This document shows positions 7,768 through 37,770 of a stretch of DNA of 49,534 nt, in pieces. The notes under the pieces are model-generated. The model saw only the letters and a list, made by a program, of their open reading frames with translations. It made no database searches and was not told where the DNA came from. Numbering within the stretch: the stretch's first letter is position 1; every line of letters begins with the position of its first letter. The translations under genes and the position numbers were made by a program. The DNA is from Gammaproteobacteria bacterium (lineage in GTDB: Bacteria > Pseudomonadota > Gammaproteobacteria > S012-40): contig JAOUJM010000009.1 in assembly GCA_029883265.1 (NCBI GenBank), forward strand, positions 1-49,534, in the 5' to 3' direction.

Positions 7768-8109
7768 ATGAGCAAAAAAGCTGAAAAAATAGAAGTAACT
7801 GAAGGTAGCGGCAATGTGTTCGCTGACCTTGGTTGCGCTAATCCAGAAGAATTAAAACTCAAAGCTAAAATTGCATCCTCTATCAATTCAATTTTGAAAC
7901 ATAGAGGAATCACACAAGCGCAAGCGGCTAGAGTTTTAGGGATTAATCAACCTGATGTTTCTAATCTTAAACGAGGAAATCTGAAACACTTTACTGTAGA
8001 GCGTCTTTTTGAGCATCTAAACTCTCTAGGTAGAGATGTTGAAATACGCATCAAAAAGAAAAACCCTCGTACAAAGCGCGAACCACATATTCAAGTGGTA
8101 GCGGCATAA
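7768..8109 (+). CDS. higA: XRE-family HTH antitoxin (HigA-like)
   Basis: HTH QAQAARVLGINQPDVSNLKRG; conserved tail NLKHFTVERLFEHLNSLGRDVEIRI typical of HigA partners of Gp49-like toxins; ORF track start 7729 but likely true start ATG 7768 just after toxin stop. Confidence 0.6.
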   Translation: MSKKAEKIEVTEGSGNVFADLGCANPEELKLKAKIASSINSILKHRGITQAQAARVLGINQPDVSNLKRGNLKHFTVERLFEHLNSLGRDVEIRIKKKNPRTKREPHIQVVAA

Positions 8110-20858: not shown

Positions 20859-21015
20859 ATTATTAATGCATTGCCTAGTGTATAGGGTCCCCAGCAGTAG
20901 TACGACACGAAGTCGCTTAGTTAAATGTTTCAACGGTCTGAGGCCCGGATGAAGCCTGTTGTTCCGACAGCAGTTCCCTACTTGGACAGGCGATCTTGAC
21001 AACGAGATGGTGACC

Positions 21016-21054
21016 TATACCCCATTTCTCGGACAGAGAAATGGGGTATAGGTC
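21016..21054. repeat. perfect 17-bp-stem hairpin (CCTATACCCCATTTCTC ggaca GAGAAATGGGGTATAGG)
   Basis: Seen directly in intergenic region between OMP gene and fic. Confidence 0.5.
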
Positions 21055-21185
21055 ATAGGGATAACTACGATCGCCCACATGGCTCGGTGCGTGGGGTTGC
21101 TTGTGATTTTATGGTGACACAGAGTTTTGAACAACCCCCCCTAGAATAAACACTATATTCGAATCATAATACCCTTGTATTTGAT

Positions 21186-22328
21186 TTGATTAAACACTAT
21201 ATTCAAATCATGAAATACAATTGGCAGCAACCAGACTGGACCGATTTTAACTACGATATCAAAGGCGTACAGGATATTTTGTTTGCTTTTGCTGAAAAGA
21301 CCGGACAAGTCAACGGTATCATGAAAAGCCTTCCTGGCACGATTCAAACCGATGCGGTCATCGACATTATGGTCTCTGAAGCTATTAAAACATCGGCAAT
21401 TGAAGGCGAGAATCTTAGCCGTTCCGATGTCATGTCCTCCATACGCCATAATCTTGGGCTCGATGCTAGTCCTTCCCTTGCTGTGGATAGACGAGCCAAA
21501 GGTGTGGCGGATCTTATGGTCGATGTACGTCACTCGTTTCAAGATCCGCTGACCGAAGCCACACTTTTTAAATGGCACGAAATGCTGATGAGCGGCCAGC
21601 GCAGAAACTTACCGGTCGGCATGTGGCGTAGTCATAAAGAACCCATGCAAGTGATCTCCGGAGTGATTGGAAAATGGAAAGTCCATTTTGAAGCACCGCC
21701 ATCTGATCAGGTTCCGCAAGAAATGATCAGATTTATAGACTGGTTTAACAAAACTGCCCCAAGCGCGGCGGAAGAAATCAAAAATCCTGTGATACGTTCC
21801 GCGATCGCTCATTTGTATTTTGAAAGCATTCATCCATTCGAGGATGGGAATGGCCGAATTGGTCGAGCCATTTCAGAAAAAGCACTCTCTCAAGGACTGG
21901 GCCGCCCCACCCTATTAAGTCTTTCCGACGCAATCGAAACAAAGAAGAAAGACTACTACAGCGCCTTAATGAATGCTCAAAAGTCTAATGAGATTACCCA
22001 CTGGATTAAATATTTTTCAACCACTGTACTTAGCGCTCAGATGATGGCGGAAGAAAAAATCGAGTTTATTCTTAATAAAACTAAATTCCTTGATCACTTC
22101 AAAGACCAGCTGAATGATCGTCAATTAAAAGTGATTCATCGAATGTTCGATGCAGGGGTACCAGGCTTTGACGGTGGAATGACACAAAAAAAATATGTCG
22201 CAATAACCAAAACATCAACTGCCACAGCGACTCGTGATCTAAAATATCTAGCCGACATCGGTGCGCTAAAACAAGTCGGCGGTGGTCGCAGTACCCGGTA
22301 TGAGATTGATTTCTGTTTTAATCGATAG
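21186..22328 (+). CDS. fic: Fic/DOC family protein (putative AMPylase)
   Basis: Canonical Fic motif HPFEDGNGRIGR within 380-aa protein; C-terminal winged-helix-like tail. Confidence 0.8.
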   Translation: MIKHYIQIMKYNWQQPDWTDFNYDIKGVQDILFAFAEKTGQVNGIMKSLPGTIQTDAVIDIMVSEAIKTSAIEGENLSRSDVMSSIRHNLGLDASPSLAVDRRAKGVADLMVDVRHSFQDPLTEATLFKWHEMLMSGQRRNLPVGMWRSHKEPMQVISGVIGKWKVHFEAPPSDQVPQEMIRFIDWFNKTAPSAAEEIKNPVIRSAIAHLYFESIHPFEDGNGRIGRAISEKALSQGLGRPTLLSLSDAIETKKKDYYSALMNAQKSNEITHWIKYFSTTVLSAQMMAEEKIEFILNKTKFLDHFKDQLNDRQLKVIHRMFDAGVPGFDGGMTQKKYVAITKTSTATATRDLKYLADIGALKQVGGGRSTRYEIDFCFNR

Positions 22329-22675: not shown

Positions 22676-22706
22676 ATCGGCCTTGGTAGGCCGATGCTTT
22701 ATTTTG
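22676..22706. terminator. hairpin catcggcc-ttggta-ggccgatg followed by T-run
   Basis: Immediately downstream of SPFH gene stop and MITE end. Confidence 0.4.
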
Positions 22707-23850
22707 TTGGTATATTGATGCGTACCATATCATTGATCACGCCATCGAGGCCACCGAATACAGTGAGACGCTCAATCTTATCCGTCACCTTTTCGAGCGT
22801 TTCCAACTCTTTTAGTCGCAACAATGTTGGATTGCCTTCCATGAGTTTCGCGGTGTTCAAAAGTGATCGTGTTGCCGCAGTTTCTTCACGACGTTTAATC
22901 ACATTCGCTTGAGCCGCCTTTTCCGCGGTCACCACCTGGTTCAAGATTTCTTTCATGTCACCAGGAAGAATGACATCTTTCACACCCACACTCACCACTT
23001 TCAAACCATAGGGTTCTACTCGGTTCTTCACCAAGGTGAAAACGGTGTTATCCAATTCACTTTTCTCACTTAATAACACGTCCAACGTTTGAGCACTGAT
23101 TGCCGAACGCAGTGCAAATTGCAATTCGCGATACAAGTATTCAACAAAGTTGTTTAGCTGATTGCGCGCAGTAACTGCATCAGTCACTTGATAGTGAGCA
23201 CTGAGATTCACACGTAGGCTCACTTTATCCTTGGTGAGAATTTCTTGGCCACTGACTTCCATGACTTGTAGTCGTAAATCGATGATTTCAACTTTTATAT
23301 TGCGTAGAAATTTCCAATAAACATGCAGACCCGGAGCAAGTGTTTTCACAAGTGCACCCTCTTCAATAAGCAATCCGACTTTGTTGTCGGCGATTTCTGC
23401 TACGCCAATCGTATGGCTCACTTTTGATGCCAAACCACTGCTCGTGGAACGTGCTAACAACTGCGTCACCGCTTGTGGTACCTCATAGTCTTCTTTGATA
23501 TCCAATACTTTAACATCGATATCAATTGGACCTTTCCAAAAAACGGCACGTGTACCCGGTGCAAGCACATCGGCTAATTTTGCATTTTGATACACCAGAC
23601 CGATTTCAAATTCACCGAGCTCGAAAACACGAAAGTGCTCAGCCATAAGTGCCGTGCTGTCATTCAACAATACATCTAACTGGTTATGACGAAATTCAGG
23701 TACCGTAACATCATATAACTTCACTTCTACACGTTGTGCATAGTCCAATAGGTGATAAACACCGGGATGCAATATGTCCACAAGTTTTTGATCCTGCATT
23801 TTCAAGCCACGCTGGTGTTGTGCAACAACAATTCGTTTATATCCAAACAT
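22699..23850 (-). CDS. SPFH/band-7 domain protein with N-terminal extension
   Basis: C-terminal half matches SPFH domain (LRVNLSAHYQV...YGLKVVSVGVKDVILPGDMKEILNQVVTAEKAAQANVIKRREETAATRSL); N-terminal ~170 aa unassigned. Confidence 0.6.
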   Translation of the reverse strand: MFGYKRIVVAQHQRGLKMQDQKLVDILHPGVYHLLDYAQRVEVKLYDVTVPEFRHNQLDVLLNDSTALMAEHFRVFELGEFEIGLVYQNAKLADVLAPGTRAVFWKGPIDIDVKVLDIKEDYEVPQAVTQLLARSTSSGLASKVSHTIGVAEIADNKVGLLIEEGALVKTLAPGLHVYWKFLRNIKVEIIDLRLQVMEVSGQEILTKDKVSLRVNLSAHYQVTDAVTARNQLNNFVEYLYRELQFALRSAISAQTLDVLLSEKSELDNTVFTLVKNRVEPYGLKVVSVGVKDVILPGDMKEILNQVVTAEKAAQANVIKRREETAATRSLLNTAKLMEGNPTLLRLKELETLEKVTDKIERLTVFGGLDGVINDMVRINIPTK

Positions 23851-24124
23851 GGCAATACTCCTTTCTAATTTCTATTGTTAGTCGTAATGGCCGATGTCCC
23901 ACACAGTCTCGCGGATGGAGAGTTGGCCGATACGCGGACGCTGGCTGTGACACATATGACGACAATCGCTTGTCTCATGACGGTTGGCAGCCTTTGTTGG
24001 CGTAGCGGTGACCCCGCCCTACAGACGGGACTGTGCTGTCAATAAAGAAGTGGCTTGTTATTATTGTTTCCCCTTCTTCATCAACAGGGACATTGACCCC
24101 TTGGCTATTTTTAAACACTGACCT

Positions 24125-24150
24125 GAACAGTGCGGGGAGTCGAACCCCAA
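24125..24150 (-). other. isolated tRNA 3'-end-like fragment (T-arm GGGG-TTCGACT-CCCC plus acceptor), no matching 5' half
   Basis: gcggggagtcgaacccc motif without complementary acceptor strand nearby; candidate att-site remnant. Confidence 0.3.
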
Positions 24151-24171
24151 GCCTCTCGGCTTTACCACGAG

Positions 24172-24242
24172 TGTCTACGGCAGGAGTCGAACCTGCTACC
24201 GGATGATTACTGTCATCTGCTCTACCCAATGAGCTACGTACA
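24172..24242 (-). pseudogene. tRNA-like pseudogene (Tyr-GUA-like anticodon, 6-nt anticodon loop, G:G mismatch in acceptor stem)
   Basis: Manual fold: D-arm GCTC/GAGC, anticodon stem GATGA/TCATC with loop CAGTAA (6 nt), T-arm GCAGG-TTCGACT-CCTGC; 71 nt. Confidence 0.35.
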
Positions 24243-24372
24243 CTGGCCTTGTTATGCACGCATTTTTTCGGTACACACCGTGCCATTGAAGCCTAAGTGT
24301 GCCAGGTGGCAACAGATGCCACGCCGCTGAAAAAACCGATTGCTTAGCAAGTCATGAAGTATCTAACGATAC

Positions 24373-24600
24373 TTACCATTCTTTTGCACCATCACACAGA
24401 GATGGTGCGCGTTCGATCTCCTCTTCCAATCCATCAAGTAAACCATAATCCTCGGCATACCACTCATCAATCATTTGACTGAGTAAGCGCGCCTCGGATT
24501 GTCGTGCACCAGATCGAACAGTCTGGTGTACGTGGCCTTTTCTCAATAGTGGAGAACATAAAACCTGTTGACGTCGTGTCGTCATGATTGTCTCCTTCAA
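24373..24600 (-). CDS. hypothetical small protein
   Basis: 75-aa ORF overlapping stop of upstream 319-aa gene by 4 bp (operonic). Confidence 0.3.
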   Translation of the reverse strand: MKETIMTTRRQQVLCSPLLRKGHVHQTVRSGARQSEARLLSQMIDEWYAEDYGLLDGLEEEIERAPSLCDGAKEW

Positions 24601-25556
24601 TGTAGGTAATACCAGGTATTGGTTTTACTTTTTTTAATCCCGCGTCGCGCAACCGAGTCCGCCATTAAAAACGCCGGTGCTTGCGCAACCTTCTCAAAAC
24701 AAAACTGGCGTGGTAATTGACTGTACAAACGCCGCGGCGGTTGTGCCCCACGTAAACGCTTCATCACATTCCCAGTCTCAAAGCTGTGATAGTAAATATG
24801 ACGCAAGCCCAACTCATGACGAATAAACCGAACTGTTGCCATGAGCATTGCTTCTTCCCACACCTCAATATACGGTGCAAAAAAGCGATTCAAGTACATC
24901 AAAATATCACGCCGTGAACCCATTAAACGGAACACATCGGAATCGTCAGAACACTGCAATACTTGCCAGGCATACAACGCCCGCCGTACCCAATCACTTT
25001 GAATCTCTTCAATTAAGGCTTCATCGCGTTCAAAGTCCACATCCATCCGTGCCCACGCCAAGGTATGTCGAAATAGCGAACGCTCCCCCCGATGATTCAC
25101 CGGGTGTAAACCGTAGTTCAAACCACAGGTCTCATGCGGTTGCGCCAAACGCTCAAAGGCTTGGTTATGCTGTTCCGAAAAATTCAGCTGCAGCACCACG
25201 TTATACCCCGGTCGAGACGTTTGTGCCCACGCACGATCGCGTCCACCCCAGGTTGTTAAACTCAACAAAAATGGTATCGCAGGACGAATCCACTGCGACC
25301 GTAAATCTTGATCACGTACCGTGGACTGACCCAGATGCGCCAGCGATTGTTGTACCTCTCTTTTTTTTAATAAACGCGCATACGACGTTTGTTTAATCTG
25401 TTTGACCGTCATGCCTTGGCCGACCAAGTCGGCCAAGAGCAAAAACGCATACTGATCTTTGAAATACCGAAAGTGCGTTTTACCCTGAGGTAAGCAATCG
25501 ATAATTTCATTCGCTTGTGTTAGTTTCATTTTGATACGCTCTCTATGTTTCAACAC
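24597..25556 (-). CDS. hypothetical protein, co-transcribed downstream of rtcB
   Basis: 319-aa ORF, Arg/Trp-rich, no motif recognised by eye; 86 bp downstream of rtcB stop on same strand. Confidence 0.45.
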   Translation of the reverse strand: MLKHRERIKMKLTQANEIIDCLPQGKTHFRYFKDQYAFLLLADLVGQGMTVKQIKQTSYARLLKKREVQQSLAHLGQSTVRDQDLRSQWIRPAIPFLLSLTTWGGRDRAWAQTSRPGYNVVLQLNFSEQHNQAFERLAQPHETCGLNYGLHPVNHRGERSLFRHTLAWARMDVDFERDEALIEEIQSDWVRRALYAWQVLQCSDDSDVFRLMGSRRDILMYLNRFFAPYIEVWEEAMLMATVRFIRHELGLRHIYYHSFETGNVMKRLRGAQPPRRLYSQLPRQFCFEKVAQAPAFLMADSVARRGIKKSKTNTWYYLH

Positions 25557-25642
25557 GACCGCCTCAAAAGGCGTTACTTTTTTGTGCCATCAAAACATTA
25601 AGTACGCGTATCACACGCCATCATGCAAACAACACCAATCAG

Positions 25643-26869
25643 TTAACCTTTTACACAGACCACTTGTTTCAATGTATGAACCACCTCAACCAAGTCGGAC
25701 TGCGCCGCCATCACTTTGTCTATATCTTTATATGCAGCGGGCGTTTCATCGATCACACTTTTATCTTTACGACATTCCACACCGTGAGTGGCCTTCACAT
25801 GATCATCCAGACTAAAACGTTTTTTCGCTTCAGTGCGTGAATGCACCCGTCCAGCACCATGACTACAACTGCAAAAACTCTCGGCATTACCTTTGCCTTT
25901 CACAATGTAACTACGCGCACCCATTGAACCAGGAATAATCCCATACTCTCCGACCCCGGCACGCACGGCACCTTTGCGTGTGACATACACGTCCTCACCA
26001 AAATGATGTTCCACTGCCACATAATTGTGATGACAATTCACTGCCATGACTTTGGCTTGAAAACTCATGGGCAAGGTCTCACGTAAGGCCATCATAACGC
26101 GATCCATCATCACTTCTCGATTCTTCGCGGCATACGCCTGAGCCCAATGCACCGCTTGCACATAATCGTCAAAATACTCTGTGCCTTCATTCAAATATGC
26201 GAGATCACGATCCGGCAAATTTAGAATATGATGGCCCATATCTTTTTTTGCCAACTCGATAAAATAACTCCCTATGCGATTACCCACACCTCGAGAACCA
26301 CTGTGTAACATCACCCAGACATCATCTTGCTCATCCATACACACTTCGATAAAATGATTCCCGGTGCCCAAGGTGCCAAGGTGATTCACATGATTCGCTT
26401 TCGCGACCTTAGGATGTTTCTCGGCAATACGATCAAATGCATCAGCTAAGCTTGCCCATGCTTGGGATACCCGCGCGGGAATATAATGCCAGGCACCACG
26501 ATCATTACGGCCGCCGCCTTTAGTACGCCCATGCGGTACCGCCGCTTCAATGGCTGTACGCACACCGGCTAAGTTGTCTGGCAAGCGTTTTCCTTTAAGT
26601 GAGGTTTTCACTGCCATCATGCCGCAACCAATATCCACCCCCACCGCAGCTGGAATAATTGCACCGACCGTTGGAATCACCGAACCCACAGTGGCGCCTT
26701 TACCCACATGCACATCGGGCATCGCAGCTACCCAGCCATGCACAAACGGTAGCCGCGCGATATTTTGTAACTGTTGTTGCGCATTCGCATCAAACAGCAC
26801 ACCATCGGTCCAGGCTTTTATGTGCACGGCCTGTTCATCACCGATAACGTTATACGTTTTCATAGTCAT
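25643..26869 (-). CDS. rtcB: RtcB-family RNA 3'-phosphate/2',3'-cyclic phosphate ligase
   Basis: 408 aa; hallmark blocks MPDVHVGKGATVGSVIP, NCHHNYV and CSCSHGAGR (catalytic His region). Confidence 0.85.
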   Translation of the reverse strand: MTMKTYNVIGDEQAVHIKAWTDGVLFDANAQQQLQNIARLPFVHGWVAAMPDVHVGKGATVGSVIPTVGAIIPAAVGVDIGCGMMAVKTSLKGKRLPDNLAGVRTAIEAAVPHGRTKGGGRNDRGAWHYIPARVSQAWASLADAFDRIAEKHPKVAKANHVNHLGTLGTGNHFIEVCMDEQDDVWVMLHSGSRGVGNRIGSYFIELAKKDMGHHILNLPDRDLAYLNEGTEYFDDYVQAVHWAQAYAAKNREVMMDRVMMALRETLPMSFQAKVMAVNCHHNYVAVEHHFGEDVYVTRKGAVRAGVGEYGIIPGSMGARSYIVKGKGNAESFCSCSHGAGRVHSRTEAKKRFSLDDHVKATHGVECRKDKSVIDETPAAYKDIDKVMAAQSDLVEVVHTLKQVVCVKG

Positions 26870-26888
26870 GCTCTTTTCCTTATCTTAT

Positions 26889-27428
26889 TCAAAACCGATT
26901 GCTCAAAAATGCCATTTGGTCGGCAAGAATGCATCGATTTCTCAGTGTTAACCACTCCGCATAATTCGGTGTATACGGCACACCGTGTAATGTCATATTC
27001 GCTTCATCGGGCGTGCGGTCTGCTTTTCTCTCATTACATACCCGACATGCTGATACCACATTGGTCCACACATTCGCACCACCCCTTGATAGCGGCATCA
27101 CATGATCCCGCGTCAGTTTGGAATCGGGTAATGATGCTAGACAATACATACATAAATGCCCATCCCGACGGAACAACTCACGGTTATTCAATGGGGGTAT
27201 CATCGTATAACGATTGACACCGTTAACCCCGCGACATGCAAGAATAGAATTGATTGCAATCCGCGAGCGTTGGCCCGTTAACCGATTTCGGCCACCATTG
27301 ATCCACAAGTGTTCATTACCAGCGATCCAAACAACTTTATCGTTCACTAATAACAATGCCGCAGTTTGCCAAGGCATCCACCCCAAGGGTTGGCCCGCAA
27401 TATCCAGTCGCAAAATTAGATGCGTCAT
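26889..27428 (-). CDS. HNH endonuclease (McrA-like)
   Basis: HNH motif CMYCLASLPDSKLTRDHVMPLSRGGANVWTNVVSACRVCNERKADRTP (C-x2-C...H...N...C-x2-C). Confidence 0.75.
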   Translation of the reverse strand: MTHLILRLDIAGQPLGWMPWQTAALLLVNDKVVWIAGNEHLWINGGRNRLTGQRSRIAINSILACRGVNGVNRYTMIPPLNNRELFRRDGHLCMYCLASLPDSKLTRDHVMPLSRGGANVWTNVVSACRVCNERKADRTPDEANMTLHGVPYTPNYAEWLTLRNRCILADQMAFLSNRF

Positions 27429-27492
27429 TCCATTCTCTCCAAATCATCACCCTTCACTCACTTAAACCAAGTAGGAACGTGTTTTATAATCG

Positions 27493-27565
27493 TGGCGCAA
27501 GCGATGTGATTCGAACACATACATCGACAATCACTCGATGCACCAATTAGCAATCGGCTGCCTTA
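27493..27565 (-). tRNA. tRNA-like gene, non-canonical (possible Ile-GAU anticodon; too-short variable region)
   Basis: T-arm ATGTG-TTCGAAT-CACAT and CCA present; anticodon stem CATCGA/TCGATG loop GTGATTG; acceptor has one mismatch; variable loop cannot be placed canonically. Confidence 0.3.
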
Positions 27566-27592
27566 CCCTTCGGCCACGCTTTCATCAATCGG

Positions 27593-27675
27593 TGCGTCTG
27601 GCCCGATTCGAACGGGCATGCTAAAAAAGCGACGAGATTTAAGCTCGCTCTGTATTCCTAATCCACCACAGTCGC
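27593..27675 (-). tRNA. tRNA-Leu(UAA), class II
   Basis: Manual cloverleaf: anticodon loop CTTAAAT; long variable arm; T-arm GCCCG-TTCGAAT-CGGGC; one A:A mismatch in acceptor; no encoded CCA. Confidence 0.55.
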
Positions 27676-27680
27676 GCAAT

Positions 27681-27756
27681 TGGTGGTGATCGTACGATTC
27701 GAACGTACATCGCCCTGCGTATGAGACAGGTGCTTTACCAATTAAGCACGATCACC
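27681..27756 (-). tRNA. tRNA-Met(CAU) elongator-type (or Ile2)
   Basis: Perfect acceptor GGTGATC/GATCACC, D-stem GCTT/AAGC, anticodon loop CTCATAC, T-arm GTACG-TTCGAAT-CGTAC, CCA encoded. Confidence 0.7.
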
Positions 27757-27757
27757 T

Positions 27758-27832
27758 TGGCACCCCGTAACGGATTCAAACCGCTAGCTGCTGATTTGGA
27801 GTCAGCCGTTTTATCACATAAACTAACGAGGC
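27758..27832 (-). tRNA. tRNA-Trp(CCA)
   Basis: Anticodon stem GCTGA/TCAGC loop CTCCAAA; D-stem GTTT/AAAC; T-loop TTTGAAT (T56 instead of C56); CCA encoded. Confidence 0.6.
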
Positions 27833-27838
27833 TAAAAC

Positions 27839-27912
27839 TGGCTCCCCGAGATCGATTCGAACGATCACTCCAAGTGTCAAAGACTTGTGTTCTACCATTA
27901 AACCATCGGGAA
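27839..27912 (-). tRNA. tRNA-Gln(UUG)
   Basis: Anticodon stem CAAGT/ACTTG loop CTTTGAC; T-arm GATCG-TTCGAAT-CGATC; CCA encoded. Confidence 0.7.
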
Positions 27913-27920
27913 AAAGTCGT

Positions 27921-27996
27921 TGGTGCCCTCACCAAGATTCGAACTTGGATCATTCACTTTCGTAGAGTGAGGCTTTAATCATTAAGCTATGAAGGC
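27921..27996 (-). tRNA. tRNA-Arg(ACG)
   Basis: Anticodon stem TCACT/AGTGA loop CTACGAA; D-stem GCTT/AAGC; T-arm CCAAG-TTCGAAT-CTTGG; CCA encoded. Confidence 0.7.
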
Positions 27997-27998
27997 AT

Positions 27999-28073
27999 TG
28001 GTCGGCGCACTCGGATTCAAACCGAGAACCTTCTGTATGTAAAACAGATGCTCTGTCATTGAGCTATGCGTCA
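27999..28073 (-). tRNA. tRNA-Val(UAC)
   Basis: Anticodon stem TCTGT/ACAGA loop TTTACAT; D-stem GCTC/GAGC; T-loop TTTGAAT; one acceptor mismatch. Confidence 0.55.
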
Positions 28074-28074
28074 T

Positions 28075-28149
28075 TGGTAGGTCTGATAAGATTTGAACTT
28101 ATATCTTTCGGGTTAAAAGCCCGATGCTTTACCATTAAGCGACAGACCC
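28075..28149 (-). tRNA. tRNA-Lys(UUU)
   Basis: Anticodon stem TCGGG/CCCGA loop CTTTTAA; D-stem GCTT/AAGC; T-arm ATAAG-TTCAAAT-CTTAT; CCA encoded. Confidence 0.7.
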
Positions 28150-28153
28150 AGCG

Positions 28154-28372
28154 TTAGCACATAAATCGCGCAAGCATATACGCTTCATCAAAATGGTTGT
28201 GGTCACGATTACGAATGCCACCATGACGAATGAACCACACCGCATTGTTTGGACTTCCGTACTTTCGTTGCTCGGGAAGATCCATGGATGCAATCAATTG
28301 CTCAAACCGTTGAGTTTGACGGCGTCGCAATAAACCCACGGTGCGTTGTTGTTGATAGTTTAAAACAGGCAT
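28154..28372 (-). CDS. hypothetical small basic protein embedded in tRNA array
   Basis: 72-aa ORF (Arg-rich) occupying the only gap in the tRNA array. Confidence 0.3.
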   Translation of the reverse strand: MPVLNYQQQRTVGLLRRRQTQRFEQLIASMDLPEQRKYGSPNNAVWFIRHGGIRNRDHNHFDEAYMLARFMC

Positions 28373-28407
28373 TACGACGTCTCCTTTTCATTGTGTGATT
28401 AAAAAAA

Positions 28408-28483
28408 TGGTACGCCCTACAGGATTCAAACCTGTGACCCTCCGGTTCGAAGCCGGATGCGCTATTCGCTGCGCCAAGGGCGT
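28408..28483 (-). tRNA. tRNA-Arg(UCG)
   Basis: Perfect acceptor ACGCCCT/AGGGCGT, anticodon stem TCCGG/CCGGA loop CTTCGAA, T-arm ACAGG-TTTGAAT-CCTGT, CCA encoded. Confidence 0.7.
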
Positions 28484-28490
28484 TTTGAAG

Positions 28491-28576
28491 TGGTAGCGCG
28501 GGAGCGATTTGAACGCTCAATCCTCAAAGGCATCTGGGCCTAAACCAGGCGTGTATTCCAGTTCCACCACCGCGCC
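28491..28576 (-). tRNA. tRNA-Leu(UAG), class II
   Basis: 5' GGCGCGGTGGTGGAACTGGAATACAC closely resembles bacterial tRNA-Leu; anticodon loop TTTAGGC; long variable arm; T-arm GAGCG-TTCAAAT-CGCTC; CCA encoded. Confidence 0.7.
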
Positions 28577-28582
28577 AGTGTT

Positions 28583-28658
28583 TGGGGCGACCGACGAGAT
28601 TTGCACTCGTATCGTCCTGGGTCACAACCAGGTGCTTTTCTATTAAGCTAAAGCCGCC
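28583..28658 (-). tRNA. tRNA-His(GUG) with G-1:C73
   Basis: Extra 5' G pairing with discriminator C; anticodon stem CCTGG/CCAGG loop TTGTGAC; D-stem GCTT/AAGC; T-loop TGCAAAT (G at position 55). Confidence 0.65.
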
Positions 28659-28664
28659 AATGTT

Positions 28665-28742
28665 TGGTCGGTGCTGAAGGATTCGAACCTTCGACCCTCT
28701 CGTCCCAAACGAGATGCGCTCATCAGACTGCGCCAAGCCCCG
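28665..28742 (-). tRNA. tRNA-Pro(UGG)
   Basis: Anticodon stem TCTCG/CGAGA loop TTTGGGA; D-stem GCGC; T-arm GAAGG-TTCGAAT-CCTTC; CCA encoded. Confidence 0.65.
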
Positions 28743-28857
28743 TTATAATACGCCAACGTTTTCTAAGCATCATTCTGTTGGCGGTGCAATTGCACTACCA
28801 CGCCTTCTAATCGGAGGTGGTGTTCCGGTGAACAAGCGGTTCACACGCATGTGTCAT

Positions 28858-28933
28858 TGGAGAACCGGACGGGATTCGAACCCGCACCATCCAGGTTGAA
28901 GGCCTGGTCGCTTAACCATTTGCATACCGGTTC
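28858..28933 (-). tRNA. tRNA-Glu(UUC)-like, non-canonical anticodon loop (C at position 33)
   Basis: Perfect acceptor GAACCGG/CCGGTTC; anticodon stem CCAGG/CCTGG loop CCTTCAA; T-arm GCGGG-TTCGAAT-CCCGT; CCA encoded. Confidence 0.5.
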
Positions 28934-28938
28934 ATAAT

Positions 28939-29013
28939 TGGCGGGATGGACGGGAATCAAACCCGCGTCCTCTTGATCGACAATCAAGTGCATGGTCATT
29001 CTGCCACCATCCC
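28939..29013 (-). tRNA. tRNA-Asp(GUC)
   Basis: Perfect acceptor GGGATGG/CCATCCC; anticodon stem CTTGA/TCAAG loop TTGTCGA; T-loop TTTGATT; CCA encoded. Confidence 0.65.
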
Positions 29014-29019
29014 TTGGTT

Positions 29020-29094
29020 TGGCTGCTAGGGTCAGACTCGAACTGACATGCCACGCCTTAACAGGACGTTCACCTACCCATGGTGCACCTAGCA
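29020..29094 (-). tRNA. tRNA-Asn(GUU)
   Basis: Perfect acceptor TGCTAGG/CCTAGCA; D-stem CACC/GGTG; anticodon loop CTGTTAA; T-arm GTCAG-TTCGAGT-CTGAC; CCA encoded. Confidence 0.7.
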
Positions 29095-29100
29095 TCTTTT

Positions 29101-29177
29101 TGGCGCAGCGAGAAGGACTTGCACCTCCACCGCCTTGGGCTTCAACCAAGCGCTCTACTACTTGGAGCTATCGCTGC
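29101..29177 (-). tRNA. tRNA-Phe(GAA)
   Basis: Perfect acceptor GCAGCGA/TCGCTGC; D-stem GCTC/GAGC; anticodon stem CTTGG/CCAAG loop TTGAAGC; T-loop TGCAAGT (G55); CCA encoded. Confidence 0.65.
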
Positions 29178-29436
29178 AAAACTGATTGGCGTTACTGAGA
29201 TCGGGTTCCCCAACCGATACCGGACATTGCGTCTCACGTTTATGAATCAGCATTACTCGTCTTTGATTCTTTTTTGACAGTCGTAATAAAAAATCCTCAA
29301 TAGACTCTGATTCCAACCCAGTGCTGTCACACCGCTCAGTAACATTGAACCTGGAGCTCAAAATCCGATTTGCACGGACATCTACTGATTACAAGTCAGT
29401 TGTTTTGCTTATTAAACTATTTAGGCTTGGTCGTCC

Positions 29437-29531
29437 TGCCTCGAATCGAACGAGGATCATGCGCTAATCGGGCGCTCATCCAAGGTATAAGCTTGGCGTT
29501 TTACCTATTAAACTACAGGACGAAAAATTTT
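29437..29531 (-). tRNA. unusual long-variable-arm tRNA-like gene with anticodon loop CTTATAC (UAU)
   Basis: Perfect acceptor CGTCCTG/CAGGACG, D-stem GTTT/AAAC, anticodon stem CCAAG/CTTGG, 25-nt variable region, T-arm CCTCG-TTCGATT-CGAGG, CCA encoded; 95 nt. Confidence 0.45.
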
Positions 29532-30037
29532 TATGCGGGCAATGATTGCAGCACACACATGGACAAAATCATGATGTGACCGGCGAACCGAGCCCGTAGC
29601 CGTGATGTTTACAACGAAACATCACGAAACACGTTCCTACTTGTTAAAGAGCAACGTTTATCATCGTGGATAAACGTGAGGCAAAAAAAACCTCAATACA
29701 CATCGTTTTATCGATGCCCATCGAGGCTGTGTCGTTCCATCGATGGGCTGTTACTAACCCATCGCATGTGTGCAAAGGGTTAAGTCATAGTGTCATGTAC
29801 AAACCATTCGTTTGTCTCAATACCAGATGCGAGTCGATACAGATCACCGCAATTAAAAATTGTGCAACCATGTGCCGGACAACTCCTGTCTATGATCTGG
29901 GCTATTGGACTTAAAAATATTTGCATGGTGTTCCTTCAAATAAAAAAATCGTGGGCATAAAAAAACCCCGGTTTGCCAACCAGGGTTCCATTATGAATAC
30001 CGTGGAAGGCTCAGCGCCTTCCAACATGAAAGGCATA

Positions 30038-30295
30038 TTAGCTCATCGCATCACCAAATGAGCAATGACGCTGCACATCATCGATTAAATTTCGCGTCTC
30101 AAATAAGGCGATCATGGCTTCGTGTCCACTGAGGGGCTCAGGAAGCAGATAGGTGTTTAATGGGTGCGTTGCGTTTAACATGGCGCTTAGTATAGTTTGC
30201 AATTTCAAGATTGCAAGACTTTTTTTCAAGTTTCTTGTAAACTGTGACCCACGCCCAATTCTTGAGTGACACACCATGACAAACAAAAACCCCAC
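30038..30295 (-). CDS. hypothetical small protein divergent from repressor gene
   Basis: 85-aa ORF; position analogous to cro-side of a lysogeny-type switch but no HTH recognised. Confidence 0.2.
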   Translation of the reverse strand: MGFLFVMVCHSRIGRGSQFTRNLKKSLAILKLQTILSAMLNATHPLNTYLLPEPLSGHEAMIALFETRNLIDDVQRHCSFGDAMS

Positions 30296-30869
30296 GGCAT
30301 TAAAAATTGGTCAACGCATGCGCCAAGCACGACTCATGGCGGGTTATCAAACCGGCGCGGAATTACTCCAGGTCTTAAGCGAATGGGGTCGAGGACGCTT
30401 GGGGAATTATGAAACCGGTGTTTCCATCCCCTCACCCGATGACTTACTCTATTTTTGTCAAACCACCGGTGCATCACCCTGCTGGGTGATGTTTGGGATT
30501 GGCCCCATTAAAGCCGACCATCGCGACATTCAAGCCATCCGTCATCAAAACCTAGAATACTGCGTCAATCAGTTTAAACAACAACGCAAACTCAATCGTT
30601 ATCTGAAAGGCATAGGCATGGCACGTCCCAAGCTCGATCAACTGCTCGATAATCCCTTTGCTACCATTAACGATCGCATCGCACGAAAAACAGAAGTCTT
30701 TCTTAAAAAGAATCAAGGTTGGATGGACGAACAACACGTCGAAAGCGACCCCATCTGCATGGCCTTCCCCGACGAACTCCGTGAACTCATGAGTATTTAT
30801 TCAGAAATGGATGCCCCGAACCGGGCAAAATTATTGGATATCGCACGAGTTTTACAACAGACAATATGA
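30276..30869 (+). CDS. CI/XRE-like HTH transcriptional repressor with C-terminal domain
   Basis: N-terminal HTH LKIGQRMRQARLMAGYQTGAELLQVLSEWGRGRLGNYETGVSIPSPDDLLYFCQTTGASPCWVMFG resembles phage-repressor-type XRE domains. Confidence 0.55.
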   Translation: MTNKNPTALKIGQRMRQARLMAGYQTGAELLQVLSEWGRGRLGNYETGVSIPSPDDLLYFCQTTGASPCWVMFGIGPIKADHRDIQAIRHQNLEYCVNQFKQQRKLNRYLKGIGMARPKLDQLLDNPFATINDRIARKTEVFLKKNQGWMDEQHVESDPICMAFPDELRELMSIYSEMDAPNRAKLLDIARVLQQTI

Positions 30870-31072
30870 TTAGTTTTACAGTCAATGCCCATCATAATGA
30901 CTACTATAATAGTCTTTCCATTTGCTGAGTTGGTAAATTGCTTAGTTACTCTCCGCTGCTTCGAATCATAATGTTTAATGAACACGGACTTATGATTTTT
31001 CATCAGGCTTTAGAAACACCGCTGCCATTGTATACAGAGAAACGATTTTTTATACGGCTGTCCATTTATTCA

Positions 31073-32677: not shown

Positions 32678-33846
32678 CCCGATCTGACAGTTACCCGTTT
32701 TTTAAGATGCCTGTCAGTTTAGATTTGAGCTATATTTTTTTCCACCCAAATCTTTTTCCCGTCAAGTAAAGTTGCTTGGGGTGTTTTCCCAAGACATTTC
32801 TTACCTTGATGGGTTCGTTCATTGTTATAGTATTCGATCCATTCGTCCAGATCTTTTTGCAAGTCCTCCATGGTTGAGTATAGTTTTTTCCGAAATGTAA
32901 TCTGATAAAATTCGTTTAAGATCGTTTTGTGAAAACGTTCGCAGATCCCATTAGTCTGCGGTGACATGGCTTTTGTCTTGGTGTGGTCAATGTCATTAAT
33001 CGCTAAATACAATTGATAATCATGCTGTTCCACGCGACCACAATATTCCGTCCCACGATCCGTCAAGATTCGTAGCATGGGGAGTTTATGGCTTTCAAAA
33101 TACGGCAGGACTTTGTCATTGAGTAAGTCGGCAGCTGTTATCGGTGTCTTCGACGTGTAGAGCTTGGCAAAGGCCACTTTACTATACGTGTCGACAAAAG
33201 TTTGTTGATAGATGCGATCGACTCCCTTGAGGTTGCCGACATAAAAGGTGTCTTGCGACCCCAGATAGCCTGGGTGCTGCGTTTCTATCTCGCCACTGAC
33301 TTCATCATCATGCTTTTTCTTTTCCAATGCAGCGACCTGTGCATCGCTGAGAATGATGCCGTCCTTCGCTACTTTTTCCTCAAGTGCTTTCAGCCGCTTT
33401 TTGAAATTCTCAAGATTGTGACGCAACCAAACGGAACGCACACCACTACCAGAAACAAAAACGCCTTGTTTGCGCAACTCATTGCTAGTGCGGTGTTGGC
33501 CATGGGCAGGCTGCTCAATCGCATAGGTGATGACCGCTTGTTCAACCACCTCGTCAACTCGATTTTTGTGATTTGGGACACGTCGATTCTTGTCAACTAA
33601 AGCGTCGATCCCACCGTCTTCCACGAGCTCTTGATAGCGATAAAACGTGTCCCGAGACACGCCCATTACTTTACAGGCTTTGGAAACATTACCTAATTCT
33701 TCCGCCAAATTGAGTAATCCGGCTTTGTGTTTAATAATAGGATTGTTAGTATGTATCATTGAGAGTTACCTTTTGTTTTGAAATAAAGATTCGACACCTT
33801 TATCAAAACGGGTAACTCTCTTCTTGTCAATTCGAAGTGTCAGATC
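32678..33846 (-). mobile_element. IS481-family insertion sequence
   Basis: Single transposase gene flanked by imperfect IRs gatctgaca...gttacccgtttt (32681-32701) and reverse complement at 33805-33846 (right IR carries a 21-bp insertion). Confidence 0.7.
32719..33759 (-). CDS. IS481-family DDE transposase (rve integrase core)
   Basis: N-terminal HTH (KACKVMGVSRDTFYRYQ), DDE/rve region ILTDRGTEY...NGICERFHKT...YNNERTHQG. Confidence 0.85.
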   Translation of the reverse strand: MIHTNNPIIKHKAGLLNLAEELGNVSKACKVMGVSRDTFYRYQELVEDGGIDALVDKNRRVPNHKNRVDEVVEQAVITYAIEQPAHGQHRTSNELRKQGVFVSGSGVRSVWLRHNLENFKKRLKALEEKVAKDGIILSDAQVAALEKKKHDDEVSGEIETQHPGYLGSQDTFYVGNLKGVDRIYQQTFVDTYSKVAFAKLYTSKTPITAADLLNDKVLPYFESHKLPMLRILTDRGTEYCGRVEQHDYQLYLAINDIDHTKTKAMSPQTNGICERFHKTILNEFYQITFRKKLYSTMEDLQKDLDEWIEYYNNERTHQGKKCLGKTPQATLLDGKKIWVEKNIAQI

Positions 33847-34495: not shown

Positions 34496-37400
34496 CCTCT
34501 AAATCGTTGGGGACCCTACTTTGGGGTGCTAGGGACATATCGTCCGCACGTAACAATTATCGCTACAGCCCCTGTCACATATAGAGTCTAGAGGGGCTTC
34601 AATTTCAAAAATTTCAATACCGTCGTTTACTTTAAGGTATTATTGGGCCTTTTGGACAATTTATGGCCTTCAAAGAACGGCTCACCATTCTTCTCGAACC
34701 CAAAATCAGGGATCTTTACCGTGTCCCGGTATTATCACTTGAGCAAAAACGAGTGTGTTTTGCATTAAACGATCTCGAACTGACTTGCATAGCAACCATA
34801 AGAGACAGAAATCAAAAGTGTTTTGCGATTGCACTCCTTGGATACTTCAAGGTAAAACCAATTACACTTAATCCCCGGTTTGGTGATGTGCAATCTGATC
34901 TATTTTTCATTGCAAAGGAATATTTTCCCAAGTTTAGTGTTCCGCGTTTTAGTGTAAATCGAATGCAGAGAGTGCGGCTATATCAAAAAGTTCTCGATGT
35001 ATTGGGTTTCAAAAACTGGGCTACTTCCAATGAACTCGAATTATTTAAGCATTTGAAATCAATTGCCAACTCTTGCATTGAACCACGTTATCTTTTCGAT
35101 GCTGGTATTGAATACCTTGCTCAAAAACATATTGCTAGCCCAAAATATACCGTACTTCAACAGATAATCAGTAAAGTAATTACTGCTGAGAAACAGCAAA
35201 TCGACACGATGCTAAAAACAGTAATGCCCCCTAGTTTATCGACTGCACTGAATGAGCAGATCTTTAGTGATACGTCGACCACTTTACGTGATGTTCGTCG
35301 GTCAGCCAAAAGCTTTACACCGGCAGAGCTGGAAAAAGAACTCAAAACTTATGATCATATTTGTTCATGGGTGGACGATATTGACCTGATTAGTGGGCAA
35401 CTAAATCTATCAATTAAGAATCAGCAACACTTTGCATCCATGGTTGATTATTACACTTTAACCAAGCTAAAGCGCTTTGATCGCGGGACTCAACAACTTT
35501 ATTTGATTTGCTATTTGCAGGAGCGACATCAACTTATCGTAGAACACCTGGCTGATGGTTTTATCTATCATACTCGTAAGCTCTGTGAGCAAGCCAAAAT
35601 TTATGCAAAAGAAACAGCCTACCTGGATTGGCAAGGTGCGGCTTCGAATGTGGGTAAAGCTGCAGATCTGTTACGCTTCTTTATCGATGATGATATTGAC
35701 GGCACACTGCCTTTTGAAACCGTGCGGGAGCAAGCTCAAGATTTATTAAAAGCGAGGGACATTGAATCATTGTGCCTGTATTTATCAAAACAAAAACGAG
35801 CCTTGGATGATTATGTTTGGGAATACTATGATCAGAAGACGGATCTAATTGAACGTCTATTACGACCGATTTTTTTATCTTTGGAATTCCAAGCATCAAC
35901 AACAACTCAAACCTTAGCATCACAAATTGCAGTATCCCAACGGGAACTCCAAACCTCACAATCACTCCTTACTTTCGATCGTCGATTGATACGCCCAAAA
36001 CAGCAGCCATATGTAGTGATTGATAATAGTGTCAATGAAAACCGATTTGAAATCCTGCTATATCTTATGGTGCAAAGTAAGCTAGACGGTCAGCTCTACA
36101 TACCGAACGCCATAAAATATCGCGCACTGCAGGATGATCTGATCAGTGACGAGGTATGGAAAGGCAAGAAAAAACTGATTAAAAACTCGATGCTGCCGCG
36201 CATCGATACTGCACCCAAAAAACTCATGGGCACGATGAACAAGACGCTCTCAAAAAAGCTAAATGATGTCAGCGAACGGATTGAGAATGGTGATAATGAG
36301 AATGTCATCTTGCGCAACCGAAGCGGCAAGACTCAATGGCGACTACCCTCGACGGGCGCAAAAAGCATGCTCAATAATCCATTTTTTGAACAATTGAAAC
36401 CAGTCAACATTGCCGACCTATTGCGACTTATAGATAAAGAAACTGGCTACCTAGCATGTTTTGAACACGTGCGACAAATTCAGACTGATCAGCGTTTTTA
36501 TGTAAATGACTTGCTAGCCGCTATAATCGGTAACGGAACCAATTACGGTATTTATGGCATGGCCAGTATTTCAGATCGCAGTTATGAACAGCTGCGAACA
36601 ACCCAAGCTAACTACCTCCGTCCTGAAACGCTTAATCAAGCGAACGACACCATTAATAATGGCATCGCTAATCTTGAAATCTTCAAGCACTACAATATTC
36701 AAGAAGGCTTGGTCCACGCCAGTGCTGATGGCCAAAAGTTTGAGTCGCGCTTAGAAACGTTTAAAACGCGATACTCATCGAAGTACTTCGGCACCAACAA
36801 AGGCGTTTCCGCACTGACACTCATAGCCAACCATGCGGCTCTGAATGCAAGAGTGACTGGATCGAACGAACATGAACCTCACTACATCTTTGACTTGCTT
36901 TATAACAACACATCTGAGATCAAACCAGACGTTTTATCGACAGATACGCACGGCGTAAACCATGTGAACTTTGCACTCTTAGATCTGTTTGGATACACCT
37001 TTGCTCCAAGGTATGCGCAATTTGGTAAAGTGATTGAAGATATGTTTGTCATCAATGAGAAAGACAATCAGAAACCAATGCTGTCACTAAAAAAACCAAT
37101 CAATACTCAGCTGATCGAGCAAGAATGGGAAACGATCCAACGAATCATCATTTCTTTACAACGAAAAACAATGACACAAGCAACGCTAGTGCGGAAACTT
37201 TCAGGTTACAGTAAAAATCATCCTTTACTACAGGCATTAACGGAATACAATCGGATGATCAAAGCCATGTACATCCTGGATTATATCGATGATGCTAGCT
37301 TGCGAAGGTATGTGCAACGCGCACTGAATCGTGGAGAAGCCTATCACCAACTACGCCGTGCGATTGCTTCAGTAAATGGAAACCGATTCAGAGGCTCATC

Positions 37401-37770
37401 GGATTATGAAATCGAACTTTGGAACGAATGTGCCAGGCTATTGACCAATGCTATCATCTATTTCAACTCCCTAATCCTAAACCACTTGCTCATTTATTTT
37501 GCAGACAACGGCGATGAAGAAAAACTCGAACTAACAAAAATGGTATCACCAGTAGCCTGGTATAATATAAATCTGAACGGAACATACAGTTTCAGCTTTG
37601 AACAAAACTTGCTCGATATTATAGAAATTATGAAACCATTGACTGAAAATCAGGAAAAAGGAAATTGAAGGGGCTCTGTAAGCTATGGATACCAAGGGCT
37701 GTAGCGATAATTGTTACATGCGGACGATATGTCCCTTGTACCCCAAGTAGGGGCCTCAAGAATTTAGAGG
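34496..37770 (+). mobile_element. Tn3-family single-gene transposable element with long (~110-bp, imperfect) terminal inverted repeats
   Basis: 34496-34606 is reverse-complement of 37661-37770 (core GGGGTGCTAGGGACATATCGTCCGCACGTAACAATTATCGCTACAGCCCC nearly perfect); right IR overlaps tnpA stop; no resolvase or cargo. Confidence 0.75.
34663..37668 (+). CDS. tnpA: Tn3-family transposase TnpA
   Basis: 1001 aa; C-terminal Tn3 signature VLSTDTHGVNHVNFALLDLFGYTFAPRYAQFG (DTHG...F-PR) and overall size typical of Tn3 TnpA. Confidence 0.8.
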   Translation: MAFKERLTILLEPKIRDLYRVPVLSLEQKRVCFALNDLELTCIATIRDRNQKCFAIALLGYFKVKPITLNPRFGDVQSDLFFIAKEYFPKFSVPRFSVNRMQRVRLYQKVLDVLGFKNWATSNELELFKHLKSIANSCIEPRYLFDAGIEYLAQKHIASPKYTVLQQIISKVITAEKQQIDTMLKTVMPPSLSTALNEQIFSDTSTTLRDVRRSAKSFTPAELEKELKTYDHICSWVDDIDLISGQLNLSIKNQQHFASMVDYYTLTKLKRFDRGTQQLYLICYLQERHQLIVEHLADGFIYHTRKLCEQAKIYAKETAYLDWQGAASNVGKAADLLRFFIDDDIDGTLPFETVREQAQDLLKARDIESLCLYLSKQKRALDDYVWEYYDQKTDLIERLLRPIFLSLEFQASTTTQTLASQIAVSQRELQTSQSLLTFDRRLIRPKQQPYVVIDNSVNENRFEILLYLMVQSKLDGQLYIPNAIKYRALQDDLISDEVWKGKKKLIKNSMLPRIDTAPKKLMGTMNKTLSKKLNDVSERIENGDNENVILRNRSGKTQWRLPSTGAKSMLNNPFFEQLKPVNIADLLRLIDKETGYLACFEHVRQIQTDQRFYVNDLLAAIIGNGTNYGIYGMASISDRSYEQLRTTQANYLRPETLNQANDTINNGIANLEIFKHYNIQEGLVHASADGQKFESRLETFKTRYSSKYFGTNKGVSALTLIANHAALNARVTGSNEHEPHYIFDLLYNNTSEIKPDVLSTDTHGVNHVNFALLDLFGYTFAPRYAQFGKVIEDMFVINEKDNQKPMLSLKKPINTQLIEQEWETIQRIIISLQRKTMTQATLVRKLSGYSKNHPLLQALTEYNRMIKAMYILDYIDDASLRRYVQRALNRGEAYHQLRRAIASVNGNRFRGSSDYEIELWNECARLLTNAIIYFNSLILNHLLIYFADNGDEEKLELTKMVSPVAWYNINLNGTYSFSFEQNLLDIIEIMKPLTENQEKGN

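Follow-up and report, generated by a model that had tools for sequence, protein, structure and literature searches.

Why would a gammaproteobacterium keep a dense run of tRNA genes beside an RNA ligase, an endonuclease and a regulator? The question is raised by contig JAOUJM010000009.1 (assembly GCA_029883265.1), part of a metagenome-assembled genome (MAG) of a "Gammaproteobacteria bacterium". We analysed the entire contig, a stretch of 49,534 nucleotides (nt) that we call the window. The unit in question spans ~22.7-30.9 kb and consists of a divergent helix-turn-helix (HTH) gene and a long minus-strand operon. In order, the operon comprises a leader, 18 tRNAs, an HNH endonuclease, RtcB, a 319-amino-acid (aa) protein called ORF319, a small protein called s70, a tRNA-like RNA (b7a-tRNA) and a Band-7/SPFH protein. 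The initial annotation had placed the module at 24100-30900, which is too short, as the unit runs on to 22699 with the Band-7 gene.

The locus belongs to two known kinds, the L-array and the RtcB/Band-7/b7a-tRNA system, here physically merged under one regulator. This fusion argues that the two belong to one and the same response, directed at a damaged translation machinery. On balance, we think it likely that the unit, normally kept silent, is a gammaproteobacterial form of a kit that stress induces to back up and repair the translation apparatus. Its parts occur in conserved order in other genomes, and its RNA elements covary. A tRNA replacement-and-repair module had been proposed at the outset, and the general idea holds: the gene set recurs as an operon elsewhere and fits the published systems of both kinds.

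We called tRNAs with ARAGORN and with the Rfam tRNA model (gathering score 29 bits). ARAGORN reports 18 intact minus-strand genes within 2030 nt, one more than first counted, and all encode CCA. The Rfam model gives 17 of the 18 scores of 36.6-75.6 bits; the other, Asn-GUU (29020-29094), is unreported by Rfam and has a clean ARAGORN cloverleaf. The dense, same-strand array originally described is therefore real, although it falls into four sub-blocks (27493-28149, 28408-28742, 28858-29177 and 29352-29522) rather than two, with a 72-aa open reading frame (ORF), s72, in one of the gaps. Read in the operon sense, the genes are Ile-UAU (95 nt), Thr-UGU, Phe, Asn, Asp, Glu, Pro-UGG, His, Leu-UAG and Arg-UCG, then s72, then Lys-UUU, Val-UAC, Arg-ACG, Gln, Trp, Met-CAU, Leu-UAA and Ser-GCU. 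The specificities missing from the array are limited to Ala, Gly, Cys and Tyr. All four had been listed as absent, but so had Ser and Thr, which are present as Ser-GCU and Thr-UGU, together with an Ile-UAU-type tRNA.

This arrangement is that of an L-array, i.e., many (up to 43) tRNA genes in a single orientation, at co-transcribable spacing and without periodicity. Internal repeats of the array are T-arm similarities only. The linkage typical of L-arrays is also present, with HNH and RtcB directly downstream, and the same linkage is seen in the comparison loci L152, L176, L259 and L260.

The same operon occurs in at least three further contigs from uncultured Gammaproteobacteria, namely L176, L259 (a JGI contig) and L260 (an NCBI MAG contig). 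The recurrent layout is an XRE-type regulator divergent from a tRNA array, which is followed by HNH, b7a-tRNA, Band-7, ORF319 or an RbfA-like gene, and RtcB. In L260, HTH199 faces 19 tRNAs, HNH, b7a, Band-7, ORF316 and RtcB. L176 has at least 14 tRNAs, then HNH, b7a with a second domain, SPFH, ORF316 and RtcB. In L259, HTH196 faces 10 tRNAs, HNH, a small ORF, b7a, Band-7, an RbfA-like gene, RtcB and an ArfB-like protein whose RF-1 domain carries the GGQ motif; on the far side of the HTH gene lie RlaP and rtcR-rtcB-rtcA. HNH homologues with 55-65% identity occupy the equivalent position in all three contigs, and their SPFH homologues are 59-65% identical to the protein in the window. A backbone of tRNA order, Phe-Asn-Asp-Pro-His...Lys...Gln-Trp-Met-Leu(UAA)-HNH, is common to the four arrays and indicates common ancestry. 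A broader layout without this order is found in L152, from an acidobacterial Blastocatellia genome, with 21 tRNAs, an HNH-like gene, 6 tRNAs and RtcB.

The genes for ribosome rescue and ribosome maturation (ArfB-like, RbfA-like) in the L259 and L257 versions point in the same direction as the back-up and repair reading. As a separate observation, positions 193-2346 and 8639-13702 of L259 make up an RNA-repair and ribosome-rescue supercluster containing ArfB-like, RbfA-like, RlaP and canonical rtcR-rtcB-rtcA genes.

How common is such linkage? Among the 80 closest RtcB loci from species-representative genomes, at least 5 tRNAs lie within 8 kb in 7 and at least 10 in 4. In a sample of 80 viral (IMG/VR) RtcB loci, 24 have tRNAs and 5 have at least 5. 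The linkage of tRNAs to rtcB is thus uncommon but recurrent, and not unique. An array with rtcB had been called rare in cellular genomes; this is correct in that it is uncommon, but the combination recurs.

An ordinary housekeeping tRNA operon that lies beside an rtc locus by chance might also look like this. The 18 genes all encode CCA and form good cloverleaves, and ~60% of the contig's codons can be read by them under simple wobble rules. However, the distribution of the array appears sporadic, and relatives that share the HTH and HNH genes lack it. Same-anticodon tRNAs are just 55-89% identical between the arrays of different loci, and tRNA-Pro alone matches E. coli tRNAs in BLAST searches. 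A housekeeping operon also fits poorly with the four absent amino acid specificities, with an aberrant long-arm UAU tRNA among the genes and with two terminators ahead of the array. We consider this explanation highly unlikely.

Relatives that lack the array are informative in another respect. Close HNH relatives stand alone, and the loci L091/L174 retain HTH-s58-HNH, where s58 is a 58-aa ORF just 5′ of HNH to which s72 is 49% identical over 49 aa. A 58-aa ORF within the L260 array resembles s72 weakly. Although L091/L174 have no array, a stretch at ~7915-7945, between the s72 homologue and HNH, is a tRNA 5′-half remnant (GGTCTGTAGCTCAACGGGTAGAGTAC), which suggests that tRNAs were lost there.

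The whole tRNA block is bracketed by a 17-nt inverted repeat, for which 100 shuffles gave 0 matches. Its arms pair at 17/17, 17/17 and 16/17 positions in three loci (the window, L259 and L260), over spans of 2.1-3.0 kb. When the arms of L259 and L260 are compared with those in the window, 6 positions vary and 5 of these 6 are compensated on both arms. In these three loci, 38-48 nt separate the downstream arm from the start of HNH, and an arm precedes HNH in L176 as well. So far the repeat has been seen in these four loci only; no convincing counterpart was found around the more distant arrays L152, L114, L115, L137 and L251. A covarying 17-bp long-range repeat around an entire tRNA array was not found in the literature searched.

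Ribosomal RNA operons have long-range processing stems, with RNase III sites flanking the 16S and 23S rRNAs. As in these stems, complementary segments kilobases apart here bracket a block of stable RNA inside a longer transcript. By this analogy, we infer that the repeat forms a long-range RNA helix that delimits a tRNA precursor. Unlike the rRNA stems, the putative helix brackets a tRNA array, and its cleavage is a proposal from sequence.

The same repeat invites another explanation, namely that the region is a mobile tRNA-array cassette or genomic island and that the 17-bp repeats are its terminal repeats, or HNH cleavage sites used for homing or recombination. The repeat brackets the tRNA block exactly and HNH is always alongside; moreover, HNH homing endonucleases have been proposed to spread L-arrays, with T4 SegB as a precedent (PMC8421152). 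That L091/L174 have no more than a tRNA 5′ remnant between HTH-s58 and HNH would also suit a cassette. Yet the s72 ORF lies inside the repeat-bounded block and is nevertheless found next to HNH where tRNAs are absent, and the fixed distance from the downstream arm to the HNH start suggests a role at the mRNA end or in translation. The nearest relatives of HNH occur as single genes with ordinary chromosomal neighbours, and the operon order is conserved along with non-mobile partners.

The surroundings of the unit bear on the same explanation. The G+C content is 0.45-0.50 across 24-31 kb, compared to ~0.38-0.44 in the flanks, and IS481-family, Tn3 and IS66 elements lie nearby. A second metagenome contig, L002 (ENA ERZ27296342), matches the window with 99.9% identity between 35556 and 22486, and beyond 22486 the two sequences diverge. 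By contrast, none of the contig ORFs scanned is an integrase adjacent to the module, and no flanking direct repeats were found. A tRNA-targeted integrative island would have an integrase and tRNA-3′-end direct repeats at both borders, and neither was found at the locus. The mobile island initially suggested thus agrees with the higher G+C, the neighbouring transposable elements and the divergence at 22486, but not with the lack of integrase and direct repeats. Overall, island status of the region is possible, and a cassette as the explanation of the locus seems to us rather unlikely.

The junction at 22486 is variable between strains and lies 213 nt past the SPFH stop codon. The elements comprise an IS481-family element at 32686-33820 with 16-nt terminal inverted repeats, a Tn3-family transposase gene at 34663-37668 and an IS66 transposase gene at 14894-16339. 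Just upstream of a Fic/DUF4172 gene (21186-22328) are a perfect 20-nt hairpin (21011-21055) and a 24-nt tandem direct repeat (21144-21211). Besides these genes, the contig encodes a flagellar operon and a LytS/LytTR two-component pair.

At the other end of the operon, a tRNA fragment and a pseudo-tRNA had been interpreted as an integration scar. They are instead two domains of one conserved, covarying RNA at a fixed position upstream of Band-7 genes. The first domain, b7a-tRNA, is a full cloverleaf with a 6-nt anticodon loop, CAGUAA, and without an encoded CCA. The second is a tRNA-half-like domain with an adjoining hairpin, which is conserved and covarying and is also present in L176, L259 and L260. 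Given that both domains are conserved at the equivalent position in other genomes, the element is not a scar.

The association of this RNA with Band-7 extends beyond tRNA arrays. In tblastn searches, 18 of the 80 genome loci, all gammaproteobacterial, have an SPFH homologue (38-49% identity) at a distance of 2-3 kb or less from rtcB. ARAGORN finds a tRNA-like gene on the same strand, 230-460 nt upstream of SPFH, in 15 of these 18. These genes have arbitrary anticodons (Met-CAU, Phe-AAA, Lys-UUU, His-AUG) or, in several cases, malformed 6-nt loops. In an alignment of the element in the window with 10 counterparts (alignment A2), the D- and T-arms are invariant, covariation is seen in the acceptor and anticodon stems, and the loop of the anticodon arm is unconstrained; compensatory changes occur in 18 of 30 predicted pairs. 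RtcB, a neighbouring Band-7 gene and a tRNA-like non-coding RNA (ncRNA) upstream of Band-7, the three hallmarks of the RtcB/Band-7/b7a-tRNA system, are thus all present.

Rsr-YrlA modules, the bacterial Ro/Y RNA systems, adjoin rtcBA. They resemble our locus in that a tRNA-mimicking ncRNA is encoded beside RtcB. Unlike YrlA, however, the RNA described here is a complete cloverleaf with a second half-domain. We rejected its assignment as a YrlA Y RNA, because it reaches 19 bits with the Rfam YrlA model, whose gathering score is 69. No ORF with a TROVE domain, which would mark an Rsr/Ro partner, is among the contig ORFs scanned.

Two further observations concern this region. Metagenome gene callers annotate a 103-aa protein at 23975-24286 (minus strand) that overlaps b7a-tRNA and is probably spurious. 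In the gap between b7a and SPFH (23851-24115, minus strand), complementary motifs GAGGCYCA ... UGRGCCUC enclose ~250-300 nt in most loci, with counterparts in L114, L118, L120, L122, L123 and L127; the version in our contig is less clear. These motifs may belong to a structured mRNA leader. The coordinates of all features of the unit are collected in Table 1.

Table 1. Features of the tRNA array-rtcB-Band-7 unit, in order along the operon from its regulator (positions in the window)
Feature	Position	Strand	Support or remark
XRE-type HTH regulator, 197 aa	30276-30869	plus	divergent from operon
Palindrome CAAGnnnCTTGTA	30227-30239	none	candidate operator of HTH regulator
Promoter-like site	30189-30216	minus	-35 TTGCAA, 16-nt spacer, -10 TATACT; consensus scan
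Putative 47-aa ORF	30038-30181	minus	starts ~8 nt after -10 box; appears leaderless
Terminator-like hairpin T1 + U7	29959-29987	minus	RNAfold -19.2 kcal/mol; equivalent in L259
Terminator-like hairpin T2 + U8	29683-29727	minus	RNAfold -22.7 kcal/mol
Inverted repeat, upstream arm	29627-29643	minus	CAAGUAGGAACGUGUUU in RNA; perfect 17-nt complement of 27468-27484
Array of 18 tRNA genes	27493-29522	minus	ARAGORN, Rfam tRNA model, cloverleaf drawings
Ile-UAU-type tRNA, 95 nt	29428-29522	minus	class-I-like D-arm, 24-nt variable arm, A73, CCA
s72 ORF, 72 aa, embedded in array	28154-28372	minus	AAGGAG, resembling a ribosome-binding site
Inverted repeat, downstream arm	27468-27484	minus	39 nt ahead of HNH start codon
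HNH endonuclease, 179 aa	26889-27428	minus	Pfam HNH_5 2.1e-15, HNH 6.3e-12
RtcB RNA ligase, 408 aa	25643-26869	minus	Pfam RtcB 1.8e-130, positions 1-426 of 426
ORF319, RtcB-associated conserved protein, putative GNAT-like core	24597-25556	minus	
s70, small basic protein, 70 aa	24373-24585	minus	begins 12 nt after ORF319
b7a-tRNA	24171-24243	minus	ARAGORN '???' call; Rfam tRNA model 50 bits
Second tRNA-half-like domain + adjoining hairpin	24116-24170	minus	GNRA-type hairpin, T-arm GGGGUUCGACUCCCC
SPFH/Band-7 protein, 383 aa, last gene	22699-23850	minus	Pfam Band_7 2.4e-30

Which proteins accompany the RNAs? The HNH endonuclease and the RtcB ligase named in the initial annotation are borne out by their Pfam matches, which for RtcB cover the full length of the family. 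The HNH translation shows the motif CxxC...DH...N...CxxC. RtcB is 60-70% identical to the RtcB proteins of many phyla, and this uniformity makes it uninformative on the question of origin. No RtcR or RTC domains were detected among the contig ORFs scanned, although both occur in comparison loci such as L259. The locus therefore differs from a canonical rtc operon (rtcR-rtcBA), which has the CARF-domain sigma-54 activator RtcR and the cyclase RtcA.

ORF319 was described at first as a 319-aa protein of no recognised family. Indeed, it has no Pfam or NCBIfam match, but it is conserved, with >1100 homologues. It adjoins rtcB in 5 of 7 independent contexts examined, and a small basic protein usually comes next. 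A small ORF follows the ORF319 homologues in L006, L254, L255 and L257, as s70 does here, with the shared motif RNPVARxP(L/I)LxKGGxH. The trio of RtcB, ORF319 and small protein is present in L254, L255 and L257, and we found no description of it in the literature searched. The idea that s70 is ArfA-like was dropped, as it has no Pfam support even at E-values up to 10.

The regulator had been called a CI-like repressor. It is an HTH protein with an XRE/Cro-C1 DNA-binding fold, but it has no CI/LexA-type peptidase domain; proteins of that type combine an N-terminal HTH with a C-terminal S24 self-cleaving peptidase. The palindrome CAAGnnnCTTGTA precedes the HTH start by ~47-100 nt, both in the window and in L259, L260, L091/L174 and the stand-alone locus L261. 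It is found upstream of every HTH homologue examined, inside a conserved block of alignment A4, which covers the divergent HTH/operon intergenic region. A dispersed HTH regulon was considered and rejected, since the palindrome occurs only upstream of HTH genes and not at stand-alone HNH or rtcB-ORF319 loci.

The divergent intergenic region is conserved among the window, L259 and L260. Its promoter-like site is overlapped by the motif TTCAAGAnnGCAAG, and both hexamers and the motif are invariant in the three loci. TTGCAA-16-TATACT is thus the putative promoter of the operon. The 47-aa ORF, which ends just before terminator-like hairpin T1, might be a leader peptide; by eye, it shows weak similarity to the N-terminal part of a 62-aa ORF that L260 has in this position. 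T2 is present in the window, L259 and L260 with differing stem sequences. The location of T1 and T2 between promoter and array, and the retention of T2 with different stems, suggest regulated read-through. Tandem leader terminators for a tRNA array were not encountered in the literature searched.

A repressor-like regulator next to tRNAs, rtcB and HNH also brings to mind a phage remnant, in which a tRNA cluster with rtcB, an HNH homing endonuclease and a CI-type repressor was left behind in the chromosome. IMG/VR contigs are rich in RtcB relatives (60-67% identity), including the tRNA-associated loci counted above, RtcB and HNH match PHROG families, and the HTH regulator has a phage-repressor fold. 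Nevertheless, megablast found no close DNA relatives in the phage and plasmid collections. No phage structural, replication or integrase genes were found in the contig, and ORF319, s70 and s72 have no PHROG matches. RtcB is equally close (65-70%) to chromosomal RtcB proteins of many phyla, the Band-7 and b7a-tRNA partners are typical of cellular rtc loci and the HTH family is chromosomal, sometimes situated among housekeeping genes. A phage remnant is thus very improbable. PADLOC, which was used for defence-system membership, gave matches at the level of the HNH domain only.

One tRNA stands apart from the others. The long-arm UAU tRNA opens the array in the window and likewise in L259 (L259 7127-7220), and with 93% identity between these loci it is the best conserved of the array; the other tRNAs are 76-89% identical. 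It has no clear relationship with the tRNAs for Leu, Ser or Tyr. We found no earlier description of a strongly conserved long-arm UAU tRNA in the literature searched. Long variable arms are also seen in other arrays, on tRNAs with class-I anticodons and a total length of 87-91 nt, namely at L251 603-692, L068 1053-1143 and L152 6247-6333 (Gln-UUG, Asp-GUC, Met-CAU).

How might these parts work together? The HTH repressor, acting on the conserved palindrome, and the two leader terminators would keep the operon silent. Damage to translation by ribotoxins, toxin RNases or phage-defence anticodon nucleases, which cut tRNA or rRNA, would lead to read-through and to a single long transcript. In this transcript the 17-bp (or longer) long-range helix would close off the tRNA block, like the processing stems of rRNA operons. 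A double-strand RNase would then cut the tRNA precursor loose from the mRNA that follows it, giving this mRNA a new 5′ end ~40 nt ahead of HNH. Once released, the tRNAs would refill depleted pools or serve as decoys, and RtcB would rejoin breaks with 2′,3′-cyclic-phosphate and 5′-OH ends. ORF319/s70, Band-7 and the b7a tRNA-like RNA would be accessory factors of RtcB.

Classical anticodon-nuclease targets are among the tRNAs of the array (Lys-UUU, Glu, Gln, His, Asn, Asp and two Arg isoacceptors), which makes a possible role as a counter-measure to such enzymes a reasonable idea. Precedent in the phage literature renders this role plausible by analogy (PMC10264068, PMC7824862).

Several points weigh against a back-up and repair kit. 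In the sample of 80 metagenome loci of HNH relatives, 74 have no nearby tRNAs. Some ORF319 and HTH relatives also stand alone, and one HTH homologue lies amid housekeeping genes. The linkage is therefore recurrent and not obligatory. The array tRNAs, being divergent, may be poorly functional. ORF319 lacks the usual GNAT acetyl-CoA-binding motif (Q/R-x-x-G-x-G/A). The inverted repeat could work at the DNA level, as cassette ends or an HNH target, and its arms offer no G-U pair that would tell an RNA role from a DNA role. Finally, the proposed co-transcription, repression, read-through and processing of the operon are deduced from sequence.

We also put forward, as a tentative and on the whole doubtful proposal, that the unit is a self-contained sensing-and-repair device. 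It would require four things jointly. The covarying RNA helix would excise the whole spare tRNA set from the primary transcript; the tandem terminators, possibly with the 47-aa ORF, would tie expression to the state of translation; ORF319/s70 would be an unrecognised RtcB cofactor or a target-modifying pair that replaces RtcA; and the highly conserved long-arm UAU tRNA would play a non-canonical role.

L-arrays and the RtcB/Band-7/b7a-tRNA system were separately described before, and both are poorly understood mechanistically. Their merger provides testable handles: a candidate operator, two leader terminators and a covarying helix around the tRNA block, as well as an RtcB partner (ORF319) with a small basic protein, a b7a-tRNA with a variable anticodon loop and a well-conserved aberrant tRNA. 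Should these features be confirmed, they would shed light on bacterial survival of tRNA-cleaving toxins and on the persistence of "cryptic" tRNA arrays.

We close by comparing the locus with known systems. Published L-arrays are linked to HNH and rtcB, are silent under standard conditions and respond to translational stress (PMC8421152, PMC10272220); at our locus, the conserved operator-like palindrome and the two leader terminators hint at such control. In Anabaena, TrcR jointly represses the L-array, rtcB, a slipin (SPFH) gene and two genes each of the HNH and GNAT types, and inhibitors of translation induce this set (PMC8421152, PMC10272220). Our locus resembles the PCC 7120 trn operon and TrcR regulon in its long, non-periodic, same-strand tRNA array of apparently sporadic distribution, in the HNH endonuclease and rtcB nearby, in the small ORFs within the array and in its probable dedicated repressor. 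The slipin/SPFH gene of the co-regulated Anabaena set has a parallel here in Band-7, and its GNAT genes may have one in ORF319. The differences are that the host is a gammaproteobacterium, that the regulator is an XRE-type HTH protein whereas TrcR has a ribbon-helix-helix fold, and that the partner genes form one operon here but are dispersed in Anabaena. The available parts of the two papers do not mention b7a-tRNA, ORF319/s70, a bracketing repeat or leader terminators.

Phage tRNA clusters with RtcB or other RNA ligases, whose rationale is to evade or repair anticodon-nuclease damage, likewise co-encode spare tRNAs and an RNA ligase (PMC7824862, PMC10264068). Our locus differs in its cellular, chromosomal context, in its Band-7, b7a and ORF319 partners and in having no phage genes.

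The association of RtcB, Band-7 and b7a-tRNA was predicted by Burroughs & Aravind 2016, as cited in bioRxiv 10.1101/312249. As in that system, RtcB adjoins Band-7 and a tRNA-like ncRNA lies directly upstream of the Band-7 gene. However, the usual gammaproteobacterial loci have rtcR divergent from rtcB-rtcA-b7a-Band-7, whereas our contig has neither rtcR nor rtcA. In their stead, it has ORF319/s70 at the position of rtcA and an XRE regulator, with 18 bona fide tRNAs and an HNH gene upstream.

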